Shown piece after piece: positions 11,997-60,665 of a stretch of 64,000 nucleotides of DNA. The notes beneath the pieces were generated by a model. It was not told the origin of the DNA, did not search any database, and saw only the letters and a list, made by a program, of their open reading frames with translations. This DNA comes from Candidatus Levyibacteriota bacterium (GTDB lineage Bacteria > Patescibacteriota > Microgenomatia > Levybacterales > UBA12049): contig CAVRKE010000002.1 of the NCBI GenBank assembly GCA_963722305.1, positions 123,878 through 187,877 on the forward strand, given 5' to 3'. Position numbers and translations under genes: made by a program. Positions within the stretch are counted from its first letter, which is position 1. The number at the start of each line of letters is the position of its first letter.

Positions 11997-12479
11997 TTAC
12001 ACTTTTCCAATTACTGGAGTTTCAAATTTTTCTCTAAGGTACCTCAAATAAAGCTGAATGTCCTCATAGTGATCAAAAGCAAAATCTTCCTTAAGTGGTA
12101 ATTTATCTAAATCAAACCATGTTACCTCAGTCGATTCCCAATCTTTTTCTCCGCTCTTACCAATAACTTCTGCAACGTAAACAAAAGAAACGTTTTGTCT
12201 ATCTTCAGCCGGTCTATCCGGATTATCAGCAATTCTTAAAAGAAGAGTTGGTTTAATATCATAACCTGTTTCCTCTTTTACTTCTCTAACGCAAGCGTCT
12301 TTTGTATTTTCGCGGCGTTCAACAAATCCGCCAATGATTGCATATTTTCCGCCATTTGTAAGCTGGGGTGCTCTTTTGACCAAGAGGATTTTGTGTTGAT
12401 CAACAACTAAAATATCTACTACAACATGTCTTAATCCGCGATTTGCTTTATTGCCGTTTTCAAAAATGCACTCAATCAT
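11997..12479 (-). CDS. NUDIX hydrolase
   Basis: Nudix box GGFVERRENTKDACVREVKEETG. Confidence 0.7.
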   Translation of the reverse strand: MIECIFENGNKANRGLRHVVVDILVVDQHKILLVKRAPQLTNGGKYAIIGGFVERRENTKDACVREVKEETGYDIKPTLLLRIADNPDRPAEDRQNVSFVYVAEVIGKSGEKDWESTEVTWFDLDKLPLKEDFAFDHYEDIQLYLRYLREKFETPVIGKV

Positions 12480-13489
12480 TTGCCGTATTGTTTTTGGTAG
12501 TAGTCTTTATATTCTCCGTTTTTAACATTTTTCCACCAATCGGCATTCTCCCGGTACCACTGAACAGTTTTGGCAAGCCATTCGTCAAATCCGTGCAGCG
12601 GCTGCCAACCAAGTTCATTTTTTATTTTTGACCAATCGATAGCGTATCTTCGGTCATGTCCCGGCCTGTCCTTAACGAATTCCAGATAATTTTCTGTTTT
12701 TCCAACCAGCTTAATAATTTTTTTAAGAATTTCAAGGTTACTCAAATCTTCGGTTAAGCCGCCTACGCAGTAGGTTTCACCAACTTTACCTTTTTGCAAA
12801 ATAGTCTCAATTGCCCGGCAATGGTCTTCTACATACAACCAATCTCTAACGTAAAGTCCGTCTCCATATACCGGTACTTTTTTATCTTCTAAAAAATTTG
12901 TTATTGCCAATGCAATAAGTTTTTCCGGAAATTGGTATGGGCCAAAATTATTTGAACAGTTAGAAATAGTCACCGGTAAACCGTAGGTATAAAAATAGGC
13001 TCTTACTAAATGGTCTGAGCCGGCTTTACTGGCTGAATAAGGGCTTCTGGGGTTATAAATTGTTCGTTCATTAAAAATGTTCTTATCTTCAAGATTAAGG
13101 CTTCCAAACACCTCATCCGTTGAGATATGATGGAACCGCTTTACTTTATTTTCAACTGCTGCATCCAGAAGAACTTGTGTCCCTAAAACGTTAGTTTTAA
13201 CAAAATTACTGGGATCTATAATGCTTCTGTCCACGTGTGATTCGGCGGCGAAATGAACAACCGTATCAACGCTTTCCGACATTACTTGCTGAACAATTTT
13301 CGGGTCACAAATATCTCCCTGAACGAATTTATAATTCGGATTGTCCTGAACGCTTTTTAGATTTTCCAGATTTCCGGCATAAGTCAGTTTATCGAAATTG
13401 ACAACTGAGTCCTCCGGATGGTTTTTCAACCAATAAATAATAAAATTTGAGCCGATAAACCCGGCTCCACCTGTTACTAAAAGTTTCAT
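12476..13489 (-). CDS. rfbB: dTDP-glucose 4,6-dehydratase
   Basis: MKLLVTGGAGFIGSNF and a canonical RmlB layout. Confidence 0.9.
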   Translation of the reverse strand: MKLLVTGGAGFIGSNFIIYWLKNHPEDSVVNFDKLTYAGNLENLKSVQDNPNYKFVQGDICDPKIVQQVMSESVDTVVHFAAESHVDRSIIDPSNFVKTNVLGTQVLLDAAVENKVKRFHHISTDEVFGSLNLEDKNIFNERTIYNPRSPYSASKAGSDHLVRAYFYTYGLPVTISNCSNNFGPYQFPEKLIALAITNFLEDKKVPVYGDGLYVRDWLYVEDHCRAIETILQKGKVGETYCVGGLTEDLSNLEILKKIIKLVGKTENYLEFVKDRPGHDRRYAIDWSKIKNELGWQPLHGFDEWLAKTVQWYRENADWWKNVKNGEYKDYYQKQYGK

Positions 13490-14229
13490 TATTTCAATTC
13501 TCCCTGTCGCACTTTCTCTGCAACCAAATTATTTGCTCTAAGTAACTCGTCGAAAGAAGTGCCTGCATCTATCCACCAATCAATCAATGAACAAGTCATT
13601 GTCCCCTCCCTTACATAAAAATTGTTTAAGTCCGTTACTTCTAGTTCGCCTCTTGCCGAAGGCGTGAGATTTTTGATGAATTGAAAAACCCTTTTATCAT
13701 ACATATATACACCTGTTTGGGCGATATCCGACTTTGGATGTTCCGGCTTTTCCTCAATAGAAATTACTTTCCCATTTTTATCCATTTCTATCACGCCATA
13801 CTGTCCCGATTCGGTTGGCATCTTTATTCCAAAGACCATCGCTCCTTTATCTCTCTTTTCAAATTCTTCAACTGCACTTTTTAAGTCAAATCCAAAAATG
13901 TTATCACCGAGAACTACTAAAATGTTTTCGTCCTTAGTAAAATCCTCCGCCAGCATAATTGCATCGGATATACCGCCTTTGGGATTTTCCTGAACAGCAT
14001 AATATAGCCTAAGACCAAAGCTTTCTCCCGTCCCGAGTAAGTTTTCGAAATGTCCTGCGTGGTCTGGTGAGCTGGTTAATAAAACTTCTTTTATGCCTGC
14101 TCTTGCCATTGCCTCAACCGGGAAATAAATCATCGGCTTATGGTAAATTGGCAACAAATGCTTATTGGTAACCGAAGTTAAAGGTCGAAGTCTGGTGGCT
14201 AACCCCCCCGCTAAAATCATTCCTTTCAT
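13489..14229 (-). CDS. rfbA: Glucose-1-phosphate thymidylyltransferase-like nucleotidyltransferase (short form)
   Basis: GMILAGGLATRLRPLT sugar-nucleotidyltransferase motif. Confidence 0.7.
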   Translation of the reverse strand: MKGMILAGGLATRLRPLTSVTNKHLLPIYHKPMIYFPVEAMARAGIKEVLLTSSPDHAGHFENLLGTGESFGLRLYYAVQENPKGGISDAIMLAEDFTKDENILVVLGDNIFGFDLKSAVEEFEKRDKGAMVFGIKMPTESGQYGVIEMDKNGKVISIEEKPEHPKSDIAQTGVYMYDKRVFQFIKNLTPSARGELEVTDLNNFYVREGTMTCSLIDWWIDAGTSFDELLRANNLVAEKVRQGELK

Positions 14230-18924: not shown

Positions 18925-19791
18925 CTATTTAAGATATCTTAGAACCGCTAAAAAGCTTGAGACAATACCCAAAAATACCGCAAATAAAACTTCCAGGCCA
19001 AGCAATAACAGAAGCGAAAAGTAAGAAACCGGCAAAACCGGAATTCCTTTTAAGAATGACTCCAAAAACGGCGAGGCATACAATAGTCCGGCAGTGGCAA
19101 TTAGCCAACCGATGACCGAACCAACAACCCCATAAAAGACTCCCTCATATATAAACGGCCAGCGGATATACCAATTTGTTGCTCCAATCAGTTTCATGAT
19201 TTCGATATCTTCTTTTTTCTGGGAAATTTTTACTCCGATTATTGTTACCATAATAAAGATGGAAACCAAAGACAAAAGGACAATTAAAACTATGCCAATT
19301 TTTCTTATCGCACCTGTCCATGCGCTTAGGGTGGAAACAACGTCTTTTTGGTAAACAACATCCGACACTAGCGGTGACTTTGTGAGCATATTGGAGATAT
19401 TTCCTAAATCTTCTATCTTAATCGTGGAGATTTCAAATGACGAAGGTAAAACGTCGGCGGTAACCAAATCCAAAAGCAGCGGGTCATTCTTATTTTGTTC
19501 TCTGTAAATTTTGAGGGCATCCTCTTTTGAAACAAATTTAATTGAGGCAACCTTACCGGTTGCTTTTAACTGATTTCCTAAAGCATCAATGTCCGCCTGT
19601 TTTGCCTCGTTTTTGAAAAAGGCTGTCACCTGAGGTTTTGACTCAAAATAATTGATTATTGTTGACGATCCGGCCAAAAGGAAGACAAAAAAGGATACTG
19701 CCAAAAAAGTTAAAGTCATGATTAGAATTGCCGCCAACGCCTGATACGGCGACCTTCGAATATTTTTCCAGGCAGTTTTAGTAATGTTCAT
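18925..19791 (-). CDS. ftsX: Cell division protein FtsX
   Basis: Four-TM permease-like topology with a large periplasmic loop. Confidence 0.85.
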   Translation of the reverse strand: MNITKTAWKNIRRSPYQALAAILIMTLTFLAVSFFVFLLAGSSTIINYFESKPQVTAFFKNEAKQADIDALGNQLKATGKVASIKFVSKEDALKIYREQNKNDPLLLDLVTADVLPSSFEISTIKIEDLGNISNMLTKSPLVSDVVYQKDVVSTLSAWTGAIRKIGIVLIVLLSLVSIFIMVTIIGVKISQKKEDIEIMKLIGATNWYIRWPFIYEGVFYGVVGSVIGWLIATAGLLYASPFLESFLKGIPVLPVSYFSLLLLLGLEVLFAVFLGIVSSFLAVLRYLK

Positions 19792-19808
19792 AGATTCGAT
19801 TCCTCACT

Positions 19809-19837
19809 ATGACCTTGAGCAATGTCGAACAGGTCAT
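19809..19837 (-). promoter_or_regulatory. Conserved intercistronic hairpin E2 (stem ATGACCT/AGGTCAT, loop TGAGCAATGTCGAAC) between ftsE and ftsX
   Basis: Same loop as E1, with two compensatory base-pair changes in the stem. The ftsE TGA lies in the stem. The spacer 19792-19837 is near-identical to 1172-1218. Confidence 0.6.
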
Positions 19838-20550
19838 TTCTTTTCCCCTCCCCTGTCCTCCGAAGCCGCCAATTTGGCGTGCGAAGGAGGATTTTCATCT
19901 TTGATAATCTTCCCCTTTTCAATATGAACTACTCTTTTCCCCAAGCTTTTCACAATATCTGTATTGTGGGTAGCCATCACCACGGTTGTTCCCTTTTTGT
20001 TGATATCCGACAGAAGTTTTACTATTTCCCATGAAGTTGCCGCATCTAAGTTACCCGTTGGCTCATCTGCCAAAAGTATTTCGGGGGACAAAACCAAAGC
20101 TCTGGCTATGGCCGCTCTTTGCAGCTCTCCCCCCGAAAGCTGCACGGGAAATTTATCTTTGTGTTCCGAAAGCCCAACTTGAGCTAAAATTTCTTCGACT
20201 GTCTTCGTGGCCTGGTCCAGTTTCACTCCGGCCACTTCTAAAGGCAACACAACATTCTCAAAAACAGTTCTGTCTAAAAGAAGCTTTAAATCCTGGAAGA
20301 CAAAGCCGACCTTTTTCCTTAAGCTGGAAATTTTATTTTTAGGAAGCTTAACCACATCCCAATCATTAACAATTACGTTTCCTTCCGTCGGCAAAATATC
20401 CCTTATCAAAAGCCTAAAAATTGTGGTTTTTCCGGCACCCGTCGAACCAACTAAAAAAACAAACTCTCCTTTTCCAATATCGAGAGAAACTTCAGAGAGG
20501 CCAAATGTACCTGTCCCGAATTTCTTGGAAACTTTATCAAGTTTTATCAT
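19834..20550 (-). CDS. ftsE: Cell division ATP-binding protein FtsE
   Basis: ABC ATPase with Walker A GSTGAGKTT, LSGGELQR and Walker B. Confidence 0.9.
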   Translation of the reverse strand: MIKLDKVSKKFGTGTFGLSEVSLDIGKGEFVFLVGSTGAGKTTIFRLLIRDILPTEGNVIVNDWDVVKLPKNKISSLRKKVGFVFQDLKLLLDRTVFENVVLPLEVAGVKLDQATKTVEEILAQVGLSEHKDKFPVQLSGGELQRAAIARALVLSPEILLADEPTGNLDAATSWEIVKLLSDINKKGTTVVMATHNTDIVKSLGKRVVHIEKGKIIKDENPPSHAKLAASEDRGGEKK

Positions 20551-22546: not shown

Positions 22547-23320
22547 ATGAATATTATACAAGCATTAATGATGTCCGCGGTTGAAGGAATTTCGGAATTT
22601 TTGCCGATTTCCTCCACCGGGCATATGATTTTAGCCGCAGATATTTTAAAAATCGCCCAGACCAGTTTTGTTAAAGATTTCGAAATTATTATCCAATTTG
22701 GGGCAATCCTGGCAATTGTGGTTTTATATTGGAACAGTTTGTTTAAAAGTCTCGAGGTCTGGAAAAGAATTATTGTCGCTTTTATTCCCACCGGAATTAT
22801 CGGCCTGCTTCTTTTTAAGCTTGTCAAGAATTATTTGTTGGGGAATTTGTATATAACTTTAATTTCTCTTTTCGTCGGAGGAGCTGTCCTCATAATACTT
22901 GAGCTAATCTACAAAGAAAAAGAACACCACCTTGAAGATATTGCCAAAATGAGTTTTCCGAAAGCTTTTGTCATTGGCCTTTTCCAGTCAATTGCCATCA
23001 TTCCGGGAGTCTCGCGGTCCGCCGCCACCATTGTCGGCGCCATGTTTTTAGGTACCAAAAGAAAAGCGGCCGCGGAGTTTTCTTTTGTTTTGGCTGTTCC
23101 GACCATGCTGGCTGCCACCGGACTTGATTTGGTCAAAACCAAATTTGACTACACACCAGCGGAGTGGTTTATAATGGCAGTGGGATTTTTTGGCGCCTTT
23201 GTTGTTGCCTTAATTTCCGTCAAACTTTTCTTAAAATATGTGCAGCGAAATAATTTTATTATCTTTGGCGTATACAGAATAATTGCCTCTATTCTGTTCT
23301 ACCTGATTGTAATTAGATAA
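22547..23320 (+). CDS. uppP: Undecaprenyl-diphosphatase
   Basis: BacA motifs (SEFLPISSTGH). Preceded by an extended -10 TGaTATAAT close to the ATG. Confidence 0.85.
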   Translation: MNIIQALMMSAVEGISEFLPISSTGHMILAADILKIAQTSFVKDFEIIIQFGAILAIVVLYWNSLFKSLEVWKRIIVAFIPTGIIGLLLFKLVKNYLLGNLYITLISLFVGGAVLIILELIYKEKEHHLEDIAKMSFPKAFVIGLFQSIAIIPGVSRSAATIVGAMFLGTKRKAAAEFSFVLAVPTMLAATGLDLVKTKFDYTPAEWFIMAVGFFGAFVVALISVKLFLKYVQRNNFIIFGVYRIIASILFYLIVIR

Positions 23321-23326
23321 TTTAAA

Positions 23327-23689
23327 ATGACACCGTTTGAAAAAGTTTACAAGGTTGTTTCTTTTGTTCCCAAAGGCAAGGTCATGACCTACAAGAAAAT
23401 TGCCGAAATTACCGGTATTAAAGATGTTAGGGTGATTGGTTATGCTTTAAATAAAAATAAAAATCCCAAGAAAATCCCTTGCCATCGGGTTATTAAAGAA
23501 GACGGAACCTTTGCCAAAGGTTATGCTTTCGGTGGCAGGAGAGCACAAAAACAAAGACTTATAGATGAAGGGGTGAAATTTTTAAATCAAGAGACTGTTG
23601 ACTTGAAACGCTCATTATATAGAATTCCTTTGAATATGGAAGTCTACTTACGACTTGTTTTCTTGCGAAAGCCTTTCCGCAGAAGCTAA
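23327..23689 (+). CDS. Methylated-DNA--protein-cysteine methyltransferase family protein (MGMT/Ogt DNA-binding domain)
   Basis: PCHRV active-site motif and an HTH region. Confidence 0.6.
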   Translation: MTPFEKVYKVVSFVPKGKVMTYKKIAEITGIKDVRVIGYALNKNKNPKKIPCHRVIKEDGTFAKGYAFGGRRAQKQRLIDEGVKFLNQETVDLKRSLYRIPLNMEVYLRLVFLRKPFRRS

Positions 23690-39329: not shown

Positions 39330-39581
39330 TTAACTTTGAACTCTTTCTCCCAGTTCGTTTATCCAGGGCACGAGTCGACGTGCTCTATCCGAAGTTCCTG
39401 GGTTAACTTCGTCCGCTTGAACAACTCTCGGTCTAACTATAATTTGTTCTGTTACTGAAGTTCTAAAAGAAATACCTGCTAGGTCTACTTTTCGCGATGA
39501 AGAAAAGCTATGTCTTCCACCATCCGGTTGACTTCCTTCCTGAGCTACTTCTTCTGGTGTCCTACCTGCTAATCTATCCAT
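39330..39581 (-). CDS. Hypothetical 83-aa protein (no recognised family)
   Basis: AGGAGGTGA SD 6 nt upstream of the ATG, preceded by hairpin E3. Confidence 0.45.
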   Translation of the reverse strand: MDRLAGRTPEEVAQEGSQPDGGRHSFSSSRKVDLAGISFRTSVTEQIIVRPRVVQADEVNPGTSDRARRLVPWINELGERVQS

Positions 39582-39600
39582 AATATTTCACCTCCTGACT

Positions 39601-39628
39601 TTAGTGGTGAGCATTGTCGAACCACTAA
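39601..39628 (-). promoter_or_regulatory. Hairpin E3 (stem TTAGTGG/CCACTAA, loop TGAGCATTGTCGAA)
   Basis: The loop matches the E1/E2 loops with a different perfect stem. On the sense strand it is followed by AGGAGGTGA and the ATG of the 83-aa ORF. Confidence 0.55.
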
Positions 39629-39760
39629 AAAACCCTTCCGTTTAGGGATATCTTTTCCGGTAATTGTTAATTACAAAAAGATTCCCTCAGAAGGGCTGCT
39701 TTTTTGCTAACTTTTCTAAATTTAATTTTTCAAAACTTGACATAATTATAAACACATTTA

Positions 39761-47242: not shown

Positions 47243-48694
47243 ATGAAGATTAATCTCCACAAGCTTAACAAACTTAAATTTGGCATCAGATTCAAGTACT
47301 CGAAACGTCTAATCCGCATTTCCCGGGTAGTCTTCTGGTTTTCTGTTGGTGCCATACTGTCATTTTTCTTTATCATCAGCTTTAGCTTTTTTGCATATCA
47401 AAAAATTTATGCAAACAAAGTTTATCAAGGAGTTTATGTTGATAATGTAAATTTTGGCGGCGAAACCAAACAGGCGGTAAGTGATTTCTTTACTGCAAAA
47501 AACTCCCAAATAAAAAACGCCCAGATTACTTTCGCAAGTGATTACGGGATTGCCACGGTTTCCGCCGGTCAAATCAGTCTTGGTTATGACCAAAATCTTT
47601 CTTCCGACCAGGCTTACAGCATCGGCAGATCGGGAAATCTGATTTCAGACCTAAGCATCATTCTTCAAGCTTATATCAATGGCATTTATCTTCCGGCAGC
47701 TTACTCCTATGATCAAAACACACTTTTAACTTTAATCCAGCCTGTTTCGCAAAAGATAGAAGAAAAACCTATTGATGCCCTGTTTAAATTCGAAAACAAC
47801 CGGGTAACGACTTTTCGGCCCTCTGAGAACGGGCAGACACTAGATCTTGACTTACTGGATAAAAAAATTGTTTCCGACATCCCCGACATTGTTTCCGCAG
47901 GAAGAAATTTAGCAGTCTCAATCACTATTCCTATAAAAATAATCCCACCCGACATTACTACCGAAAAGGTCAACAACCTGGGCATTAAAGAGTTAATCGG
48001 TGTTGGCCATTCTCTTTTTTATGACTCTATCCAAAGCAGAATCTTTAACATCAACCTTGCCGCTAACAGACTTAATGGCATACTGGTTGCCCCGGGTGAA
48101 ACTTTTTCCTTCGACAAAGCCCTTGGTGACGTCTCTGCCTTTACCGGTTATCAACAGGCTTATGTTATCCAGAACGGGAAAACCGTCTTGGGAGACGGCG
48201 GTGGAGTCTGCCAAGTTTCAACCACATTTTTTAGAGCTTTGCTTAACGCCGGCTTACCAATTGTGGAAAGACATGCCCATGCCTACAGAGTCGGCTACTA
48301 CGAGGAAGATTCTCCTCCGGGTTTGGATGCAACCATTTATGTACCCACTGTTGACCTGAAATTCTTAAACGATACCGGACATTATATTCTAATTCAAAGC
48401 AAAATCGACCTTGACAATTTGGCTTTAACCTTTGAGTTGTATGGAACAAGTGACGGCAGGCGGGTCATGATGACCACGCCGGTTGTCAGCAATCAAACGC
48501 CGCCGCCGCCGACTCTTTATCAGGATGATCCTACACTTCCAAAAGGACAATTAAAACAAACGGATTTTGCGGCTTGGGGAGCAGATGTCTACTTCACCAG
48601 AACCGTCACCAGAAACGGTAAAACAATAATTTTTGACAAATTTGTTTCCGACTACCAACCCTGGCAAGCGGTTTATTTAAGGGGGACGCAATAA
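47243..48694 (+). CDS. VanW-family protein
   Basis: VanW core with GGGVCQVSTTFF. Confidence 0.75.
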   Translation: MKINLHKLNKLKFGIRFKYSKRLIRISRVVFWFSVGAILSFFFIISFSFFAYQKIYANKVYQGVYVDNVNFGGETKQAVSDFFTAKNSQIKNAQITFASDYGIATVSAGQISLGYDQNLSSDQAYSIGRSGNLISDLSIILQAYINGIYLPAAYSYDQNTLLTLIQPVSQKIEEKPIDALFKFENNRVTTFRPSENGQTLDLDLLDKKIVSDIPDIVSAGRNLAVSITIPIKIIPPDITTEKVNNLGIKELIGVGHSLFYDSIQSRIFNINLAANRLNGILVAPGETFSFDKALGDVSAFTGYQQAYVIQNGKTVLGDGGGVCQVSTTFFRALLNAGLPIVERHAHAYRVGYYEEDSPPGLDATIYVPTVDLKFLNDTGHYILIQSKIDLDNLALTFELYGTSDGRRVMMTTPVVSNQTPPPPTLYQDDPTLPKGQLKQTDFAAWGADVYFTRTVTRNGKTIIFDKFVSDYQPWQAVYLRGTQ

Positions 48695-49218
48695 TGCGAC
48701 ACTTTGAAAAAGTTAGTCCCCGCGTGGGAAATAGAATTGTTAATATTCAAGAAGCGGCAAAAATCAGCCGCAGACTAAAAAAGGAAGGAAAAACTGTGGT
48801 TCTTACCGGAGGTTGTTTCGATATTCTTCACTTAGGCCACCTCAAATTCTTAGAGGCGGCAAAAAAAGGCGGTGACATCTTGTTTGTCTTTGTGGAAAGC
48901 GATGAAAACGTCCGCAGAGTTAAAGGCGAGAACCGGCCAATCAATACCCAGGATGAAAGAATCGGTTTACTGGCAGCAATCCGTTTCGTCGACTATGTAA
49001 TAAAATTGCCTCTTATGCACGACAACAACGACTACGACAAATTGACAAAAATGGTACAACCGTCAATTATTGCCGTCACCAAGGGAAGCGAGGTTATAAA
49101 ACATGCCCGAAGACAGGCAGAAAAAATCGGTTGCGAAGTTATCGAAGTAGTTGGCAGAATTCCCGACCGTTCTACCTCAAAAATTGCCGGGATTATCTCC
49201 GCAGAAAATAAATTATGA
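48694..49218 (+). CDS. Cytidylyltransferase-family protein (RfaE domain II / HldE C-terminus-like heptose-1-P adenylyltransferase)
   Basis: VVLTGGCFDILHLGHLKFL motif. Confidence 0.6.
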   Translation: MRHFEKVSPRVGNRIVNIQEAAKISRRLKKEGKTVVLTGGCFDILHLGHLKFLEAAKKGGDILFVFVESDENVRRVKGENRPINTQDERIGLLAAIRFVDYVIKLPLMHDNNDYDKLTKMVQPSIIAVTKGSEVIKHARRQAEKIGCEVIEVVGRIPDRSTSKIAGIISAENKL

Positions 49219-49247
49219 CCCAAGGAAATAGCGAATGAATTGAACCT

Positions 49248-49691
49248 ATGAAGATTACCTATTTTTTATTAGTAGCATTTATCATCCTCGTTGTTGTCCT
49301 TTTGAAAATCGATTATTTCAGTCCCCAACCACCAACCGCCGAAATCAATGGGCATGTATTTTCTCTATATCTTGCCAAAACGGAGTCTGAACAGGAAGTG
49401 GGACTAGCGAAATTTGATAGAATCGCCAATCATCAAGGTATGCTTTTCATTTTCCAAAAGCCCGATTACTATTCTTTTTGGATGAAAAACATGAAATTTC
49501 CAATTGATATTATTTTTATTAATAACGATAGAGTAGTCGACATTTTTCAGAATGTTCCCGTACAGAAAGACACTAATAATCTTCCGACCTACACCACCGG
49601 CGAAAAAGCCGATAAGGTACTGGAAATAAATGCCGGCTTGGCAAAGCAATACAGCATCAAGATCGGTACGGAAGTGGGGATTAATTTGTGA
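49248..49691 (+). CDS. DUF192 domain protein
   Basis: GMLFIF...FWMKNMKFPIDIIFI. Confidence 0.65.
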   Translation: MKITYFLLVAFIILVVVLLKIDYFSPQPPTAEINGHVFSLYLAKTESEQEVGLAKFDRIANHQGMLFIFQKPDYYSFWMKNMKFPIDIIFINNDRVVDIFQNVPVQKDTNNLPTYTTGEKADKVLEINAGLAKQYSIKIGTEVGINL

Positions 49692-58937: not shown

Positions 58938-59210
58938 TTACCTTACTACTTTCTTCAAGGTTTTCCCCGGTGTAAATCCCGGTGCTTTGCGGGCCGCAAT
59001 GGTAATTTTTTCTCCGGTCTTTGGATTTCTTCCCGGCCTGGCGGCTCTTTTTCTAATGGAGAATGTGCCAAATCCGGTAATCACTACCTTCTCGCCTCTT
59101 TTTAAGGAGTCTCTGATGCCGTTTAAGAATGCCCCAACGGCATCTCTGGCTGCCTTATTGGTCATATTCCCTTTTTTGGCAACTAACTCTATTAAATCTT
59201 TTTTTGTCAA
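58938..59210 (-). CDS. hup: DNA-binding protein HU
   Basis: HU fold (GFGTFSIRKRAARPGRNPKTGE). TTG start with a GAGGTGA SD. Confidence 0.9.
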   Translation of the reverse strand: MTKKDLIELVAKKGNMTNKAARDAVGAFLNGIRDSLKRGEKVVITGFGTFSIRKRAARPGRNPKTGEKITIAARKAPGFTPGKTLKKVVR

Positions 59211-59417
59211 CTCAATTCACCTCGCTTTCCTAACAAATAGTCGAACTAATAACTAGTGGCTAATTGCTAATGGCTGATTATTAATTAGCTTAACAATACA
59301 ATGTAAATGAGAAGTTGTCAAGGGGCGAACAATTACTATTTCGCCCTGCGATCCTGAGCGAAATGAAGTCCTCCAAGGACTGAGTGGAGTCGAACGGGTC
59401 AAGCACCTTTTAATTAT

Positions 59418-60665
59418 TTACGAGGAAAATTCGGTGGCGGTGGCGCGGAATTCCCGAATGGCGGTCACTTTTATTTCTCCGGCTACTGCCTGAGATTTAC
59501 TGACTTCATCCCTGATTTTATTGGCGACCACTGTCGTTTGCGCATCGTCCAATTGTCCCGGATTGATGATGACCCGCAATTCTCTCCCGGCTTCAAACGC
59601 ATAAGCGTCCTCAACGCCTTCATATTTTTTGGCAATTTCTTCCATTTGCGCCAAGCGCTTACCGTAGTTTTCCACATCTTCATATCGAGCACCCGGTCTG
59701 GCTCCGGAAATCTGGTCGGCAATATGCACAATCACCGACTCAACCGAGGAAAACGGCTTATCTTCATGGTGTTCGGCCACACAATTAACAATTAAGTCCG
59801 GGATATTATTTTTCTTTAAGAAATCTACTCCCAAAGTGACATGGCTGCCCTCGCCTTCCAGCACTTTTCCGATATCGTGGAATAAACACCCCAGGCGGAC
59901 AATATTGACGTTGGCCCCGATTTCTTCGGCAATGTGGATTCCGATTTTGACGTCTTCCAAAGTATGAATGATTAAATTCTGACCGTAAGAAGTCCTGAAT
60001 TTAAATCTGCCTAAGACTTGCAGAATTTCGCGGGACAAATTAAACACTCCGGCTTCATGTGCCATTCTTTCGCCTTCTTCAAACATTATCCTATCGACTT
60101 CTTTTTTTGTTTCCTCAACAATTTCCTCTATGCGGAATGGCTGAATCCTGGTATCCCTGATTAATTTTTCCAAAGACCTTCTGGCCACTTCCCGTCTGAC
60201 CTGGTCAAAACTGGATAGCCTGATAACACCCTCTTCATCCAAATCAACGTCTACTCCGGTGGCCTGTTCAAAAGCCCGGATGTTTCTGCCTTCTTTGCCG
60301 ATGATGCGGCCTTTAATTTCTTCGTCGGGGATTTTCACTACCGAAACCGTGTATTCGGCAATAAACTTGAGGGCGCCAAAGCGCATAGCGTCCACCAGAA
60401 TTTCCTGGGCCTTTTTATCGGCGGTGGACTTGGCTTCGTCTTCCCTGTCCCGGATAATTTTAGCGGCTGTCTTAGCTTCACTTAATTCCAGTTGTTCTAA
60501 GAGCTCTTTTTTGGCTGCCTCGGCACTTAAACCGGAGGTTTTTTCCAGTTTTTCCTGATATTTATCTTTAAGCTCGGTAAGCTTCGCTCTTTCCTGTTCA
60601 AGTTTTTCTTCCCTTTCCAGAAGTTTTTTTTCTAATTGAATTAAATCCTGATTATCTTGTGCCAT
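59418..60665 (-). CDS. rny: Ribonuclease Y (lacks the N-terminal TM anchor)
   Basis: KH and HD domains. 415 aa. Begins with a coiled coil. Confidence 0.85.
   Translation of the reverse strand: MAQDNQDLIQLEKKLLEREEKLEQERAKLTELKDKYQEKLEKTSGLSAEAAKKELLEQLELSEAKTAAKIIRDREDEAKSTADKKAQEILVDAMRFGALKFIAEYTVSVVKIPDEEIKGRIIGKEGRNIRAFEQATGVDVDLDEEGVIRLSSFDQVRREVARRSLEKLIRDTRIQPFRIEEIVEETKKEVDRIMFEEGERMAHEAGVFNLSREILQVLGRFKFRTSYGQNLIIHTLEDVKIGIHIAEEIGANVNIVRLGCLFHDIGKVLEGEGSHVTLGVDFLKKNNIPDLIVNCVAEHHEDKPFSSVESVIVHIADQISGARPGARYEDVENYGKRLAQMEEIAKKYEGVEDAYAFEAGRELRVIINPGQLDDAQTTVVANKIRDEVSKSQAVAGEIKVTAIREFRATATEFSS

Follow-up and report, generated by a model that had tools for sequence, protein, structure and literature searches.

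Between ftsE and ftsX, a hairpin encloses the stop codon of the upstream gene and ends directly at the start codon of the downstream gene. Does it control ftsX, or did it arrive there from elsewhere? The question arises from 64,000 nt of a Candidatus Levyibacteriota genome (assembly GCA_963722305.1, contig CAVRKE010000002.1, positions 123,878 to 187,877), hereafter called the window. Homologues of FtsX place the source in Candidatus Levybacteria, a lineage of the Patescibacteria. A first-pass annotation had described the hairpin at 19792-19837 as a second copy of an element at 1172-1218 and had suggested a function in the 5' region of the downstream cistron. Our analysis confirms that 19788-19837 and 1168-1218 are two copies of one repeat of about 50 nt. 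Such repeats form a dispersed, apparently undescribed family in Candidatus Levybacteria and related Patescibacteria, and an insertion-type dispersed repeat is the most likely explanation, ahead of a dedicated regulator of ftsX. The copy between ftsE and ftsX probably represents a recent insertion of a miniature hairpin element, similar to REPINs or miniature inverted-repeat transposable elements (MITEs), into the ATGA overlap of the two genes, where it was tolerated.

Two copies of one repeat in the window

Copy A (ATGACCTGTTCGACATTGCTCAAGGTCATAGTGAGGAATCGAATCTATGA) runs on the minus strand from 19837 to 19788, from the ftsE stop to the ftsX start, and measures 50 nt including both flanking ATGA repeats. 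Copy B (ATGACACGTTCGACTTTTCTCAGTGTCATAGTGAGTAAATCGAATCTATGA), 51 nt in the same count, extends on the minus strand from 1218 to 1168 between an open reading frame (ORF) of 191 aa (1215-1790) and a secD-like gene that runs off the end of the window. A degenerate 29-mer pattern matched only these two sites in the window, with 0 matches expected in shuffled sequences. A covariance model derived from family members scored copy A at 70.6 bits and copy B at 72.3 bits (E values of about 1e-14 to 1e-15), although both belong to the 16 sequences from which the model was built and match it partly by construction; the next-best site elsewhere in the window reached 14.8 bits. The proposed identity of the two hairpins is thus borne out. 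The likeness ends at the element boundaries, with unrelated coding sequence on either side, so that a segmental duplication reaching into the coding regions does not account for the pair.

Each copy starts with ATGA, in which TGA is the stop codon of the upstream gene, and finishes with ATGA, in which ATG is the start codon of the downstream gene. In copy A the left repeat lies at 19834-19837, where the ftsX start of relatives overlaps ftsE, and the ftsE stop codon (19834-19836) is embedded in a stem as the first-pass annotation had stated, namely in the 5' arm ATGACCT (19831-19837) of a 7-bp helix, S1, whose pairing is found throughout the family. The S1 stems of copies A (ATGACCT/AGGTCAT) and B (ATGACAC/GTGTCAT) each deviate from the family consensus ATGACCC/GGGTCAT by a different compensatory pair. 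The loop GTTCGACATTGCTCA (19816-19830) contains the family-wide motif RTTCGRY-N(2-5)-CTCA, and its ends, GTTCGA and CTCA, are complementary to TCGAAT and TGAG in the tail (helix S2). An internal 9-mer, AGG-TCA-TAG (19807-19815), faces both junctions: AGGTCA pairs with the left junction TGA-CCT in S1 and TCATAG with the right junction CTA-TGA in a third helix, S3. Further downstream are AGTGAGG (19802-19808), the nearly invariant A/U-rich tail AATCGAATCT (19792-19801), which abuts the ftsX ATG on its upstream side, and the right repeat (19788-19791) with the ftsX start codon (19789-19791). FtsX aligns with its relatives from residue 1; therefore the ATG at the end of the element is the native ftsX start, and the element now supplies the entire region immediately upstream of it.

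The block preceding the ATG had been described as conserved including an SD-like (Shine-Dalgarno-like) GTGAGG. AGTGAG-N(1-2)-AATCGAATCT-ATG is indeed common to both copies, but GTGAGG occurs in copy A only, copy B having GTGAGT. The AGTGAG core is present in nearly all family members, and its extension to GAGG in about one third of them; in the others T, A or C follows. We therefore rejected a Shine-Dalgarno reading for the family, as GAGG lies 10-12 nt from the ATG where it occurs and is otherwise replaced by GAGT, GAGA or GAGC. SD-like motifs precede only 10 of 62 ORF starts in the window, compared with a background of 9%. At many ORF starts in the window a TAnAAT-like box lies 6-8 nt ahead of the ATG, a pattern expected of leaderless mRNAs. 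The fixed distance of about 35 nt from loop to ATG, taken earlier as a sign of function, is not evidence of regulation, because the ATG and the following A belong to the repeated unit in every full-length copy.

Distribution and gene context of the family

One genome per species was scanned with an exact pattern that contained the ATG, which yielded 18 loci in about 13 metagenome-assembled genomes, most of them labelled Levybacteria. The covariance model, built from short forms, detected over 30 copies in the fetched DNA (0.85 Mb), which came from 80 metagenomic loci around relatives of ftsX and from matches to an ATG-containing pattern (loci designated L002, L003 and so on), and two intact copies in the window. 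The family consensus is ATGACCC-RTTCGRY-N(2-5)-GCTCA-GGGTCAT-AGTGAG-N(1-3)-AATCGAATCT-ATGA. The element is non-coding and palindromic, with a size of about 46-50 nt and longer composite forms of 68-105 nt.

All full-length copies that are not nested in another copy are fused to the ATG of a gene and oriented like that gene. The genes downstream are ftsX, ftsE, secD, adk (after secY), rpmJ/L36 (after infA) and rfbB for a sugar dehydratase, furthermore mltG/yceG, an MGMT-like gene (after uppP), yebC, and genes for GT2 glycosyltransferases, a CAP-domain protein and a response regulator. They are functionally unrelated and form no common regulon. On the upstream side, the left TGA is the stop codon of the preceding gene in 18 of about 30 copies; in others that stop lies 1-4 nt ahead of the element, or a -10-like box precedes the element, which would suit an originally leaderless mRNA. 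In L043, where no gene begins at the right ATGA, the tail has decayed and the hairpin has been retained. Copies at orthologous junctions are 88-96% identical, compared with only about 40-60% at third codon positions of the flanks, and compensatory changes distinguish orthologous copies at secD and at rfbB (L052 versus L066). Orthologues of copy B are present in L088 and L095, and the protein encoded downstream in L088 is SecD according to Pfam.

Some of the carriers bear unexpected labels. L089, L096 and L099 (CAYWEP01..., CAZIDK01...) are filed as 'uncultured Gammaproteobacteria'; they are probably mis-binned or mislabelled, because the gene context around ftsE is of the Levybacteria type. 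L092, labelled Candidatus Nomurabacteria, has one copy. Contig OCZT010145177.1 (L019, positions 1-21) begins with AGACGTGTGCTCTTCCGATCT, which we take to be an Illumina adapter and thus assembly contamination.

Filled and empty junctions

In the approximately 20 loci closest to the window (L002-L020, FtsX identity 78-86%) ftsE and ftsX are joined by a plain ATGA overlap with no spacer, for example ...GAATGAGTTTT and ...GGAGGATAAAGAATGAGTTTT. Hence, the hairpin is not a conserved control element of ftsX, and copy A looks like an insertion into the overlap. Most remoter loci are empty at this position as well, and it is filled only in the window, L035, L044 and L074. A filled site equals the empty site plus the element plus a second (A)TGA. 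An alignment of filled and empty ftsE-ftsX junctions with MAFFT gave no clean gap, as the C-terminal tails of FtsE vary in length, and the raw junction sequences are clearer. This tail (window 19840-19900, minus strand; same region in L002-L081) is variable, of low complexity and rich in Lys, Glu and Asp. Its length differs even among close relatives, and in relatives it contains the GGAGG that precedes ftsX.

The same contrast was found at other junctions. Upstream of ftsE the junction is empty in the window and in most loci, and filled in L041/42, L050, L055 and L096. Between rfbA and rfbB (window 12476-14229, minus strand) the window is empty, with TA-ATGA-AACTTTTAGT, and L052 reads ATGA-element-ATGA-AACTTTTAGT with the same flanks; L066 is filled too. 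At the uppP-ogt junction (window 22547-23689, plus strand) the window lacks the element, which L030/L084, L093 and L034 carry. L050, L055 and L096 have GTGA as the left repeat and nonetheless ATGA as the right one; the A in front of the right TGA thus belongs to the element, and the repeated unit is TGA. At least nine gene pairs in the window overlap by 4 nt of the ATGA type and constitute unoccupied potential target sites.

Base pairing at the junctions

In consensus terms, S1 pairs the left junction TGA-CCC with GGGTCA. Between 96.6 and 100% of the cells are paired (96.6% in the core alignment of 25 sequences), five of the seven pairs show compensatory changes, none of 500 shuffled alignments was as good, and RNAalifold agrees. 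In S3 the right junction CTA-TGA pairs with TCATAG, a segment that partly coincides with the 3' arm of S1. This helix is paired in 100% of cells, its outermost pair varies (GC in 21, CG in 2, AU in 1 and UA in 1), and again 0 of 500 shuffles did as well. Conservation of structure is thus backed by covariation for S1 and S3. S2 is invariant apart from wobble-compatible changes. Covariation can, however, also arise in DNA hairpins without an RNA function.

The left and right flanking triplets are identical in all copies, and the internal 9-mer GGG-TCA-TAG, complementary to both junctions, would be the perfect partner of a joined sequence CTA-TGA-CCC. Both end triplets and the internal complement covary: TGA with TCA in most copies, TGG with CCA in L045, and TCG with CGA in two nested copies. 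A stem-agnostic search of the fetched loci for other target triplets returned TGA-type short forms only. The stems differ between subfamilies (TGACCC, TGGTCC, TCGYAC, TTAGTGG) and the loop is conserved; on the opposite strand the S3 hairpin displays the loop motif as well.

S1 and S2 differ little in predicted energy (-8 to -10 and -5.5 to -9 kcal/mol, respectively), and for both window copies the predicted minimum-energy structure is the alternative fold. We also considered a pseudoknot of S1 with the whole of S2 and rejected it as sterically unlikely, since the inner CUCA/UGAG helix would have only a 2-nt connector. S1 could form a pseudoknot with GUUCGA/UCGAAU alone, although covariation gives this no support, as the R positions change only in wobble-compatible ways.

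Nested and composite copies

The long forms contain additional hairpins, placed either in the loop or within the tail spacer. The inserts of L050 and L082 are themselves family members in reverse orientation (40.8 and 35.2 bits), with the same loop and tail motifs, the stem TCGYAC/GTRCGA and TCG at both ends. L050 corresponds to its un-nested orthologue L055 plus 47 nt, and the insert is flanked by a duplicated TCG, a 3-bp duplication; taking out the insert together with one TCG restores a canonical loop. Identical composites occur at different junctions in different genomes, and at the secY-adk junction L083 and L085 carry different composite subfamilies, which would be independent insertions. 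Judged from these sequences, the reverse nesting, the recurring composites and the loop motif on both strands argue for events at the DNA level. A further recurrent insert is a 20-nt near-perfect palindrome, TTCGACTGAGCTCAGTCGAA, centred on GAGCTC, which is found in L030/L084, L083, L034 and L041 and sits in the loop of some copies and in the tail spacer of others.

Searches for known RNA classes and mobilizing enzymes

No Rfam family matched at gathering score anywhere in the window, and around the element a search with E values up to 10 gave only matches at chance level (E >2). ARAGORN reported no tRNA or tmRNA. A scan for terminators and promoters called nothing on the gene strand at the element, where the stem is followed by AGTGAGG and by no run of T. 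The element pattern had 0 matches in virus contigs and thus gave no sign of a phage vehicle. In the literature on repeats and MITEs of Levybacteria and the Candidate Phyla Radiation (CPR) we found no description of the family.

Insertion or regulation

If the element spreads by insertion, it would land at RTGA, probably by means of a folded single-stranded hairpin whose internal 9-mer pairs with the target triplet. The agent could be an enzyme that acts in trans and is encoded outside the window, or template switching at TGA microhomology. We infer this mechanism only, because the searches returned neither a mobilizing enzyme in the window nor an autonomous element in the fetched DNA, a phage vehicle among virus contigs or a publication. 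In compact genomes only insertions at start codons would survive, as the element would restore a stop codon and an ATG where it lands. It would furthermore set an A/U-rich unpaired stretch before the ATG, with S1 folding away its G+C-rich half. At ftsE-ftsX a 4-nt overlap would thus have been replaced by a 42-nt spacer, and initiation of ftsX would have to use the tail of the element. The net change in expression is probably small, although an effect on translation of ftsX or secD is possible, and the element may have acquired an added role in translation or mRNA stability.

Several observations weigh against this interpretation. Of the 62 window ORFs searched, none matched a Pfam family for a transposase, integrase, HUH/RAYT or Y1 TnpA protein (ftsE and ftsX were assigned separately, and the window covers about 10% of a contig of about 680 kb), and an autonomous partner with the family ends (TGACCC-RTTCGRY... 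and ...AATCGAATCTA-TGA) was not found in about 0.9 Mb. Copy number is low, with about 2-5 per 64 kb in the window and 1-2 strict matches per genome. Few independent variants underlie the covariation of the triplets, namely L045 and two nested copies, L050n and L082n, whose register was set by analogy; the core alignment, A4, was made by removing variable segments. The high identity at orthologous junctions relative to the flanks would be explained by purifying selection on a local function no less well than by repeated re-insertion. All full-length copies that are not nested stand in gene orientation exactly before an ATG, and a cis-acting RNA would show the same; copies away from start codons were under-sampled, because the loci came from the surroundings of ftsX or from matches to a pattern containing ATG.

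These last points lead to the principal rival, a cis-acting mRNA element, which we regard as rather unlikely. It would be an intercistronic leader that sets translation of the downstream cistron, its spread to new junctions being secondary. S1 (AUGACCC/GGGUCAU, with the upstream stop) and S3 (UCAUAG/CUAUGA, with the downstream AUG) share UCAU and are mutually exclusive, and S2 would connect loop and tail. With S1 formed, the AUG and the A/U-rich leader would be free; a ribosome terminating at the UGA would open S1 and allow S3 or S2 to mask the start transiently. In a variant, the 5'-proximal hairpin could stabilize the polycistronic mRNA or mark a processing site. The covariation of S1 and S3 speaks for such a role, as do the near-equal energies of S1 and S2 with the alternative fold as the minimum in the window copies. 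The same applies to the strong conservation relative to synonymous sites with compensatory changes at secD and rfbB, the uniform fusion to start codons in gene orientation, and the hairpin retained beside a decayed tail in L043, where no gene starts. With few SD motifs in the genome, local structure may moreover matter at internal starts. Against these points, the same junction is empty in the closest relatives, the downstream genes share no function, and there is no Rfam match. Copies nested in reverse orientation and a loop motif on the non-transcribed strand are hard to reconcile with an RNA, and the repeated flanking triplet behaves like an insertion scar. In addition, the model predicts that translation of the upstream gene hinders the downstream start, an odd design.

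A relay by a short ORF is very improbable. It supposes that the left ATG, the old start, opens an ORF of 15-19 codons through the element, whose termination re-couples translation. Copy A retains the old GGAGG 8 nt upstream of this ATG, and its mini-ORF extends beyond the ftsX ATG by 11 nt. Copy B and six further copies have a mini-ORF whose stop TGA overlaps the real ATG (CTATGA), and about half of the copies have a spacing of 2 mod 3. On the other hand, 18 of 29 copies have an early stop, mostly at the TAG of GGGTCATAG, two fuse in frame with the downstream gene, two run out of frame past the real ATG, and the peptide is conserved no further than the nucleotide motifs impose. Since spacers vary by 1-3 nt, the frame is not conserved, nor is the position of the stop, and a leader peptide was rejected as a feature of the family. 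Explanations by chance, by recent local duplication, or by a hairpin acting as intrinsic terminator or attenuator can practically be set aside: a site that is, after all, only a stem-loop after a stop codon might suggest them, yet 0 matches were expected, the E value is about 1e-15, the flanks are unrelated, dozens of copies exist elsewhere, and neither a T-run nor a terminator call accompanies the stem.

We thus favour insertion of a miniature element at the ftsE-ftsX overlap. A more specific proposal, which we consider unlikely, is that the family is ultra-small mobile DNA whose target is set by nucleic-acid pairing, with the 9-mer pairing to the circle or donor junction CTA-TGA-CCC and its central triplet to the target. 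A change of the triplet would then retarget the element, TGA directing it to stop/start overlaps and TGG and TCG elsewhere, and the TGA subfamily would be adapted to ATGA and GTGA overlaps by rebuilding the stop, the start and the initiation region.

Related sites in the window

Copy A is flanked by ftsE (19834-20550, minus strand; Pfam ABC_tran) on its upstream and ftsX (18925-19791, minus strand; Pfam FtsX and FtsX_ECD) on its downstream side. Besides copies A and B, the 14.8-bit site at 49215-49251 (plus strand; ATGACCC-AAGGAAATAGCGAATGA-ATTGAACCT-ATGA) is a probable decayed third copy. One end coincides with the stop codon (TGA) of ORF 48694-49218, which is cytidylyltransferase-like, and the other with the start codon (ATG) of ORF 49248-49691, which encodes a DUF192 protein; both ends have been retained, and the loop and the 3' arm, and with them the hairpin, have been lost. 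A single hairpin at 39599-39630 (minus strand; TTTAGTGG-TTCGACAATGCTCA-CCACTAAA) carries the family loop motif TTCGACAATGCTCA on a stem of unrelated sequence, TTTAGTGG/CCACTAAA. The site belongs to the 5' region of an 83-aa ORF (39330-39581), and a canonical AGGAGGTGA and the ATG come after it. Because the loop motif is kept on an unrelated stem, this hairpin suggests that the loop rather than the stem is the recognized part. Another single unit was found in L083 (6157-6193). Finally, the spacer after the RNase Y gene contains a partial family-like sequence at 59340-59401 (minus strand; TGACCC GTTCGAC TCCACTCAG ... GCTCAGGATCG), located between the RNase Y gene (59418-60665) and a promoter-like site, TTGACA-17-TATTGT, upstream of the HU gene (58938-59210).

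Implications

If insertion is the correct explanation, the family would be among the smallest insertion-type elements known, with a body of about 46 nt and a 3-bp duplication, and would represent mobile DNA in CPR bacteria, whose reduced genomes are usually thought poor in it. It would exemplify a parasitic lifestyle suited to dense operons, namely insertion at a stop/start overlap with reconstruction of the two codons. The joint variation of three sites, the two flanks and the internal complement, provides a concrete and testable rule of target choice. In genome annotation, elements of this kind resemble regulatory hairpins, and predicted starts can be displaced by them. Tightly coupled pairs such as ftsE-ftsX become separated by a structured spacer, which may alter expression ratios.

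Comparison with known systems

Like intercistronic coupling RNAs, the element has the upstream stop codon in a stem and alternative pairings with the downstream AUG (S3) or the leader (S2). Those RNAs are, however, locus-specific and vertically inherited, and are not dispersed repeats with insertion scars and reverse-nested copies. The coherent set of genes and the stable presence at orthologous junctions that mark a cis-regulatory RNA were not found in the Levybacteria family.

Integron attC sites have R'' and R' cores (RYYYAAC/GTTRRRY) and belong to a system with the integrase IntI, attI and cassette arrays. Read on its bottom strand, the element resembles them in having a core triplet, a short cargo and a hairpin that contains the inverse core and carries the same triplet at the end of its 3' arm, in its location at ORF boundaries, and in tolerating inserts of variable length mid-hairpin. 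Its stems, however, do not fit the R''/R' cores; it is dispersed singly and not in arrays, has a cargo of about 20 nt and no attI, and the window ORFs searched include no integrase. Elements of the IS200/IS605 group of insertion sequences (IS) and PATEs are centred on hairpins and insert by a short target, and their cleavage and target sites are recognized via internal guide pairing. IS200/IS605 elements have separate left and right hairpins and guides, produce no duplication and depend on Y1 TnpA. The Levybacteria element has a hairpin, a fixed left flank (RTGA) and a covarying internal complement, and differs in its single 9-mer for both junctions, the same triplet at both ends, an apparent duplication and the lack of TnpA among the window ORFs searched.

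The small dispersed repeats (SDRs) of Nostoc and other cyanobacteria are reportedly hairpin-forming repeats of 21-27 nt whose mobility was deduced from nested insertions and from presence and absence. We know of no enzyme for them. The Levybacteria element differs from SDRs in sequence, host and architecture, and SDRs are not known to have any link to start codons.

Bacterial MITEs such as Correia/NEMIS in Neisseria, RUP in S. pneumoniae and bcr1 in the Bacillus cereus group are small (100-400 nt), non-autonomous elements with inverted repeats and a target-site duplication. They lie beside genes, are co-transcribed with them and can supply expression signals. Target-site duplication and empty sites are likewise observed here, with (A)TGA at both ends and TCG duplicated in L050 versus L055, and sub-terminal inverted repeats are present as GTTCGA/TCGAAT and CTCA/TGAG. 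To our knowledge, no related full-length IS exists. In contrast to MITEs, the Levybacteria element has only about 46 nt, its duplicated triplet lies within a hairpin with an internal complement, and it is positioned exactly at stop/start overlaps.

REP elements conserve the stem and a 5' GTAG (Bertels & Rainey 2011, PMC3116915), in contrast to the Levybacteria element, in which the loop is conserved, the stem covaries and no GTAG lies 5' of the stem. Further differences are the overlap of the two units, which share one arm, the flanking direct repeats of 3-4 nt, the fusion to start codons, the low copy number, and a window search that returned no RAYT gene. The REPs and REPINs of E. coli and Pseudomonas, which RAYT transposases mobilize, are short, non-coding, dispersed palindromes that occur singly or as inverted doublets, and they are located between operon genes and co-transcribed (PMC3116915). 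The Levybacteria family likewise consists of dispersed short palindromes and inverted doublets, with one unit on the top strand (ATGACCC-loop-GGGTCAT), a second on the bottom strand (TCATAG-loop-CTATGA) and the same loop motif in both, and as in a REPIN the whole element can fold into one larger hairpin through S2.

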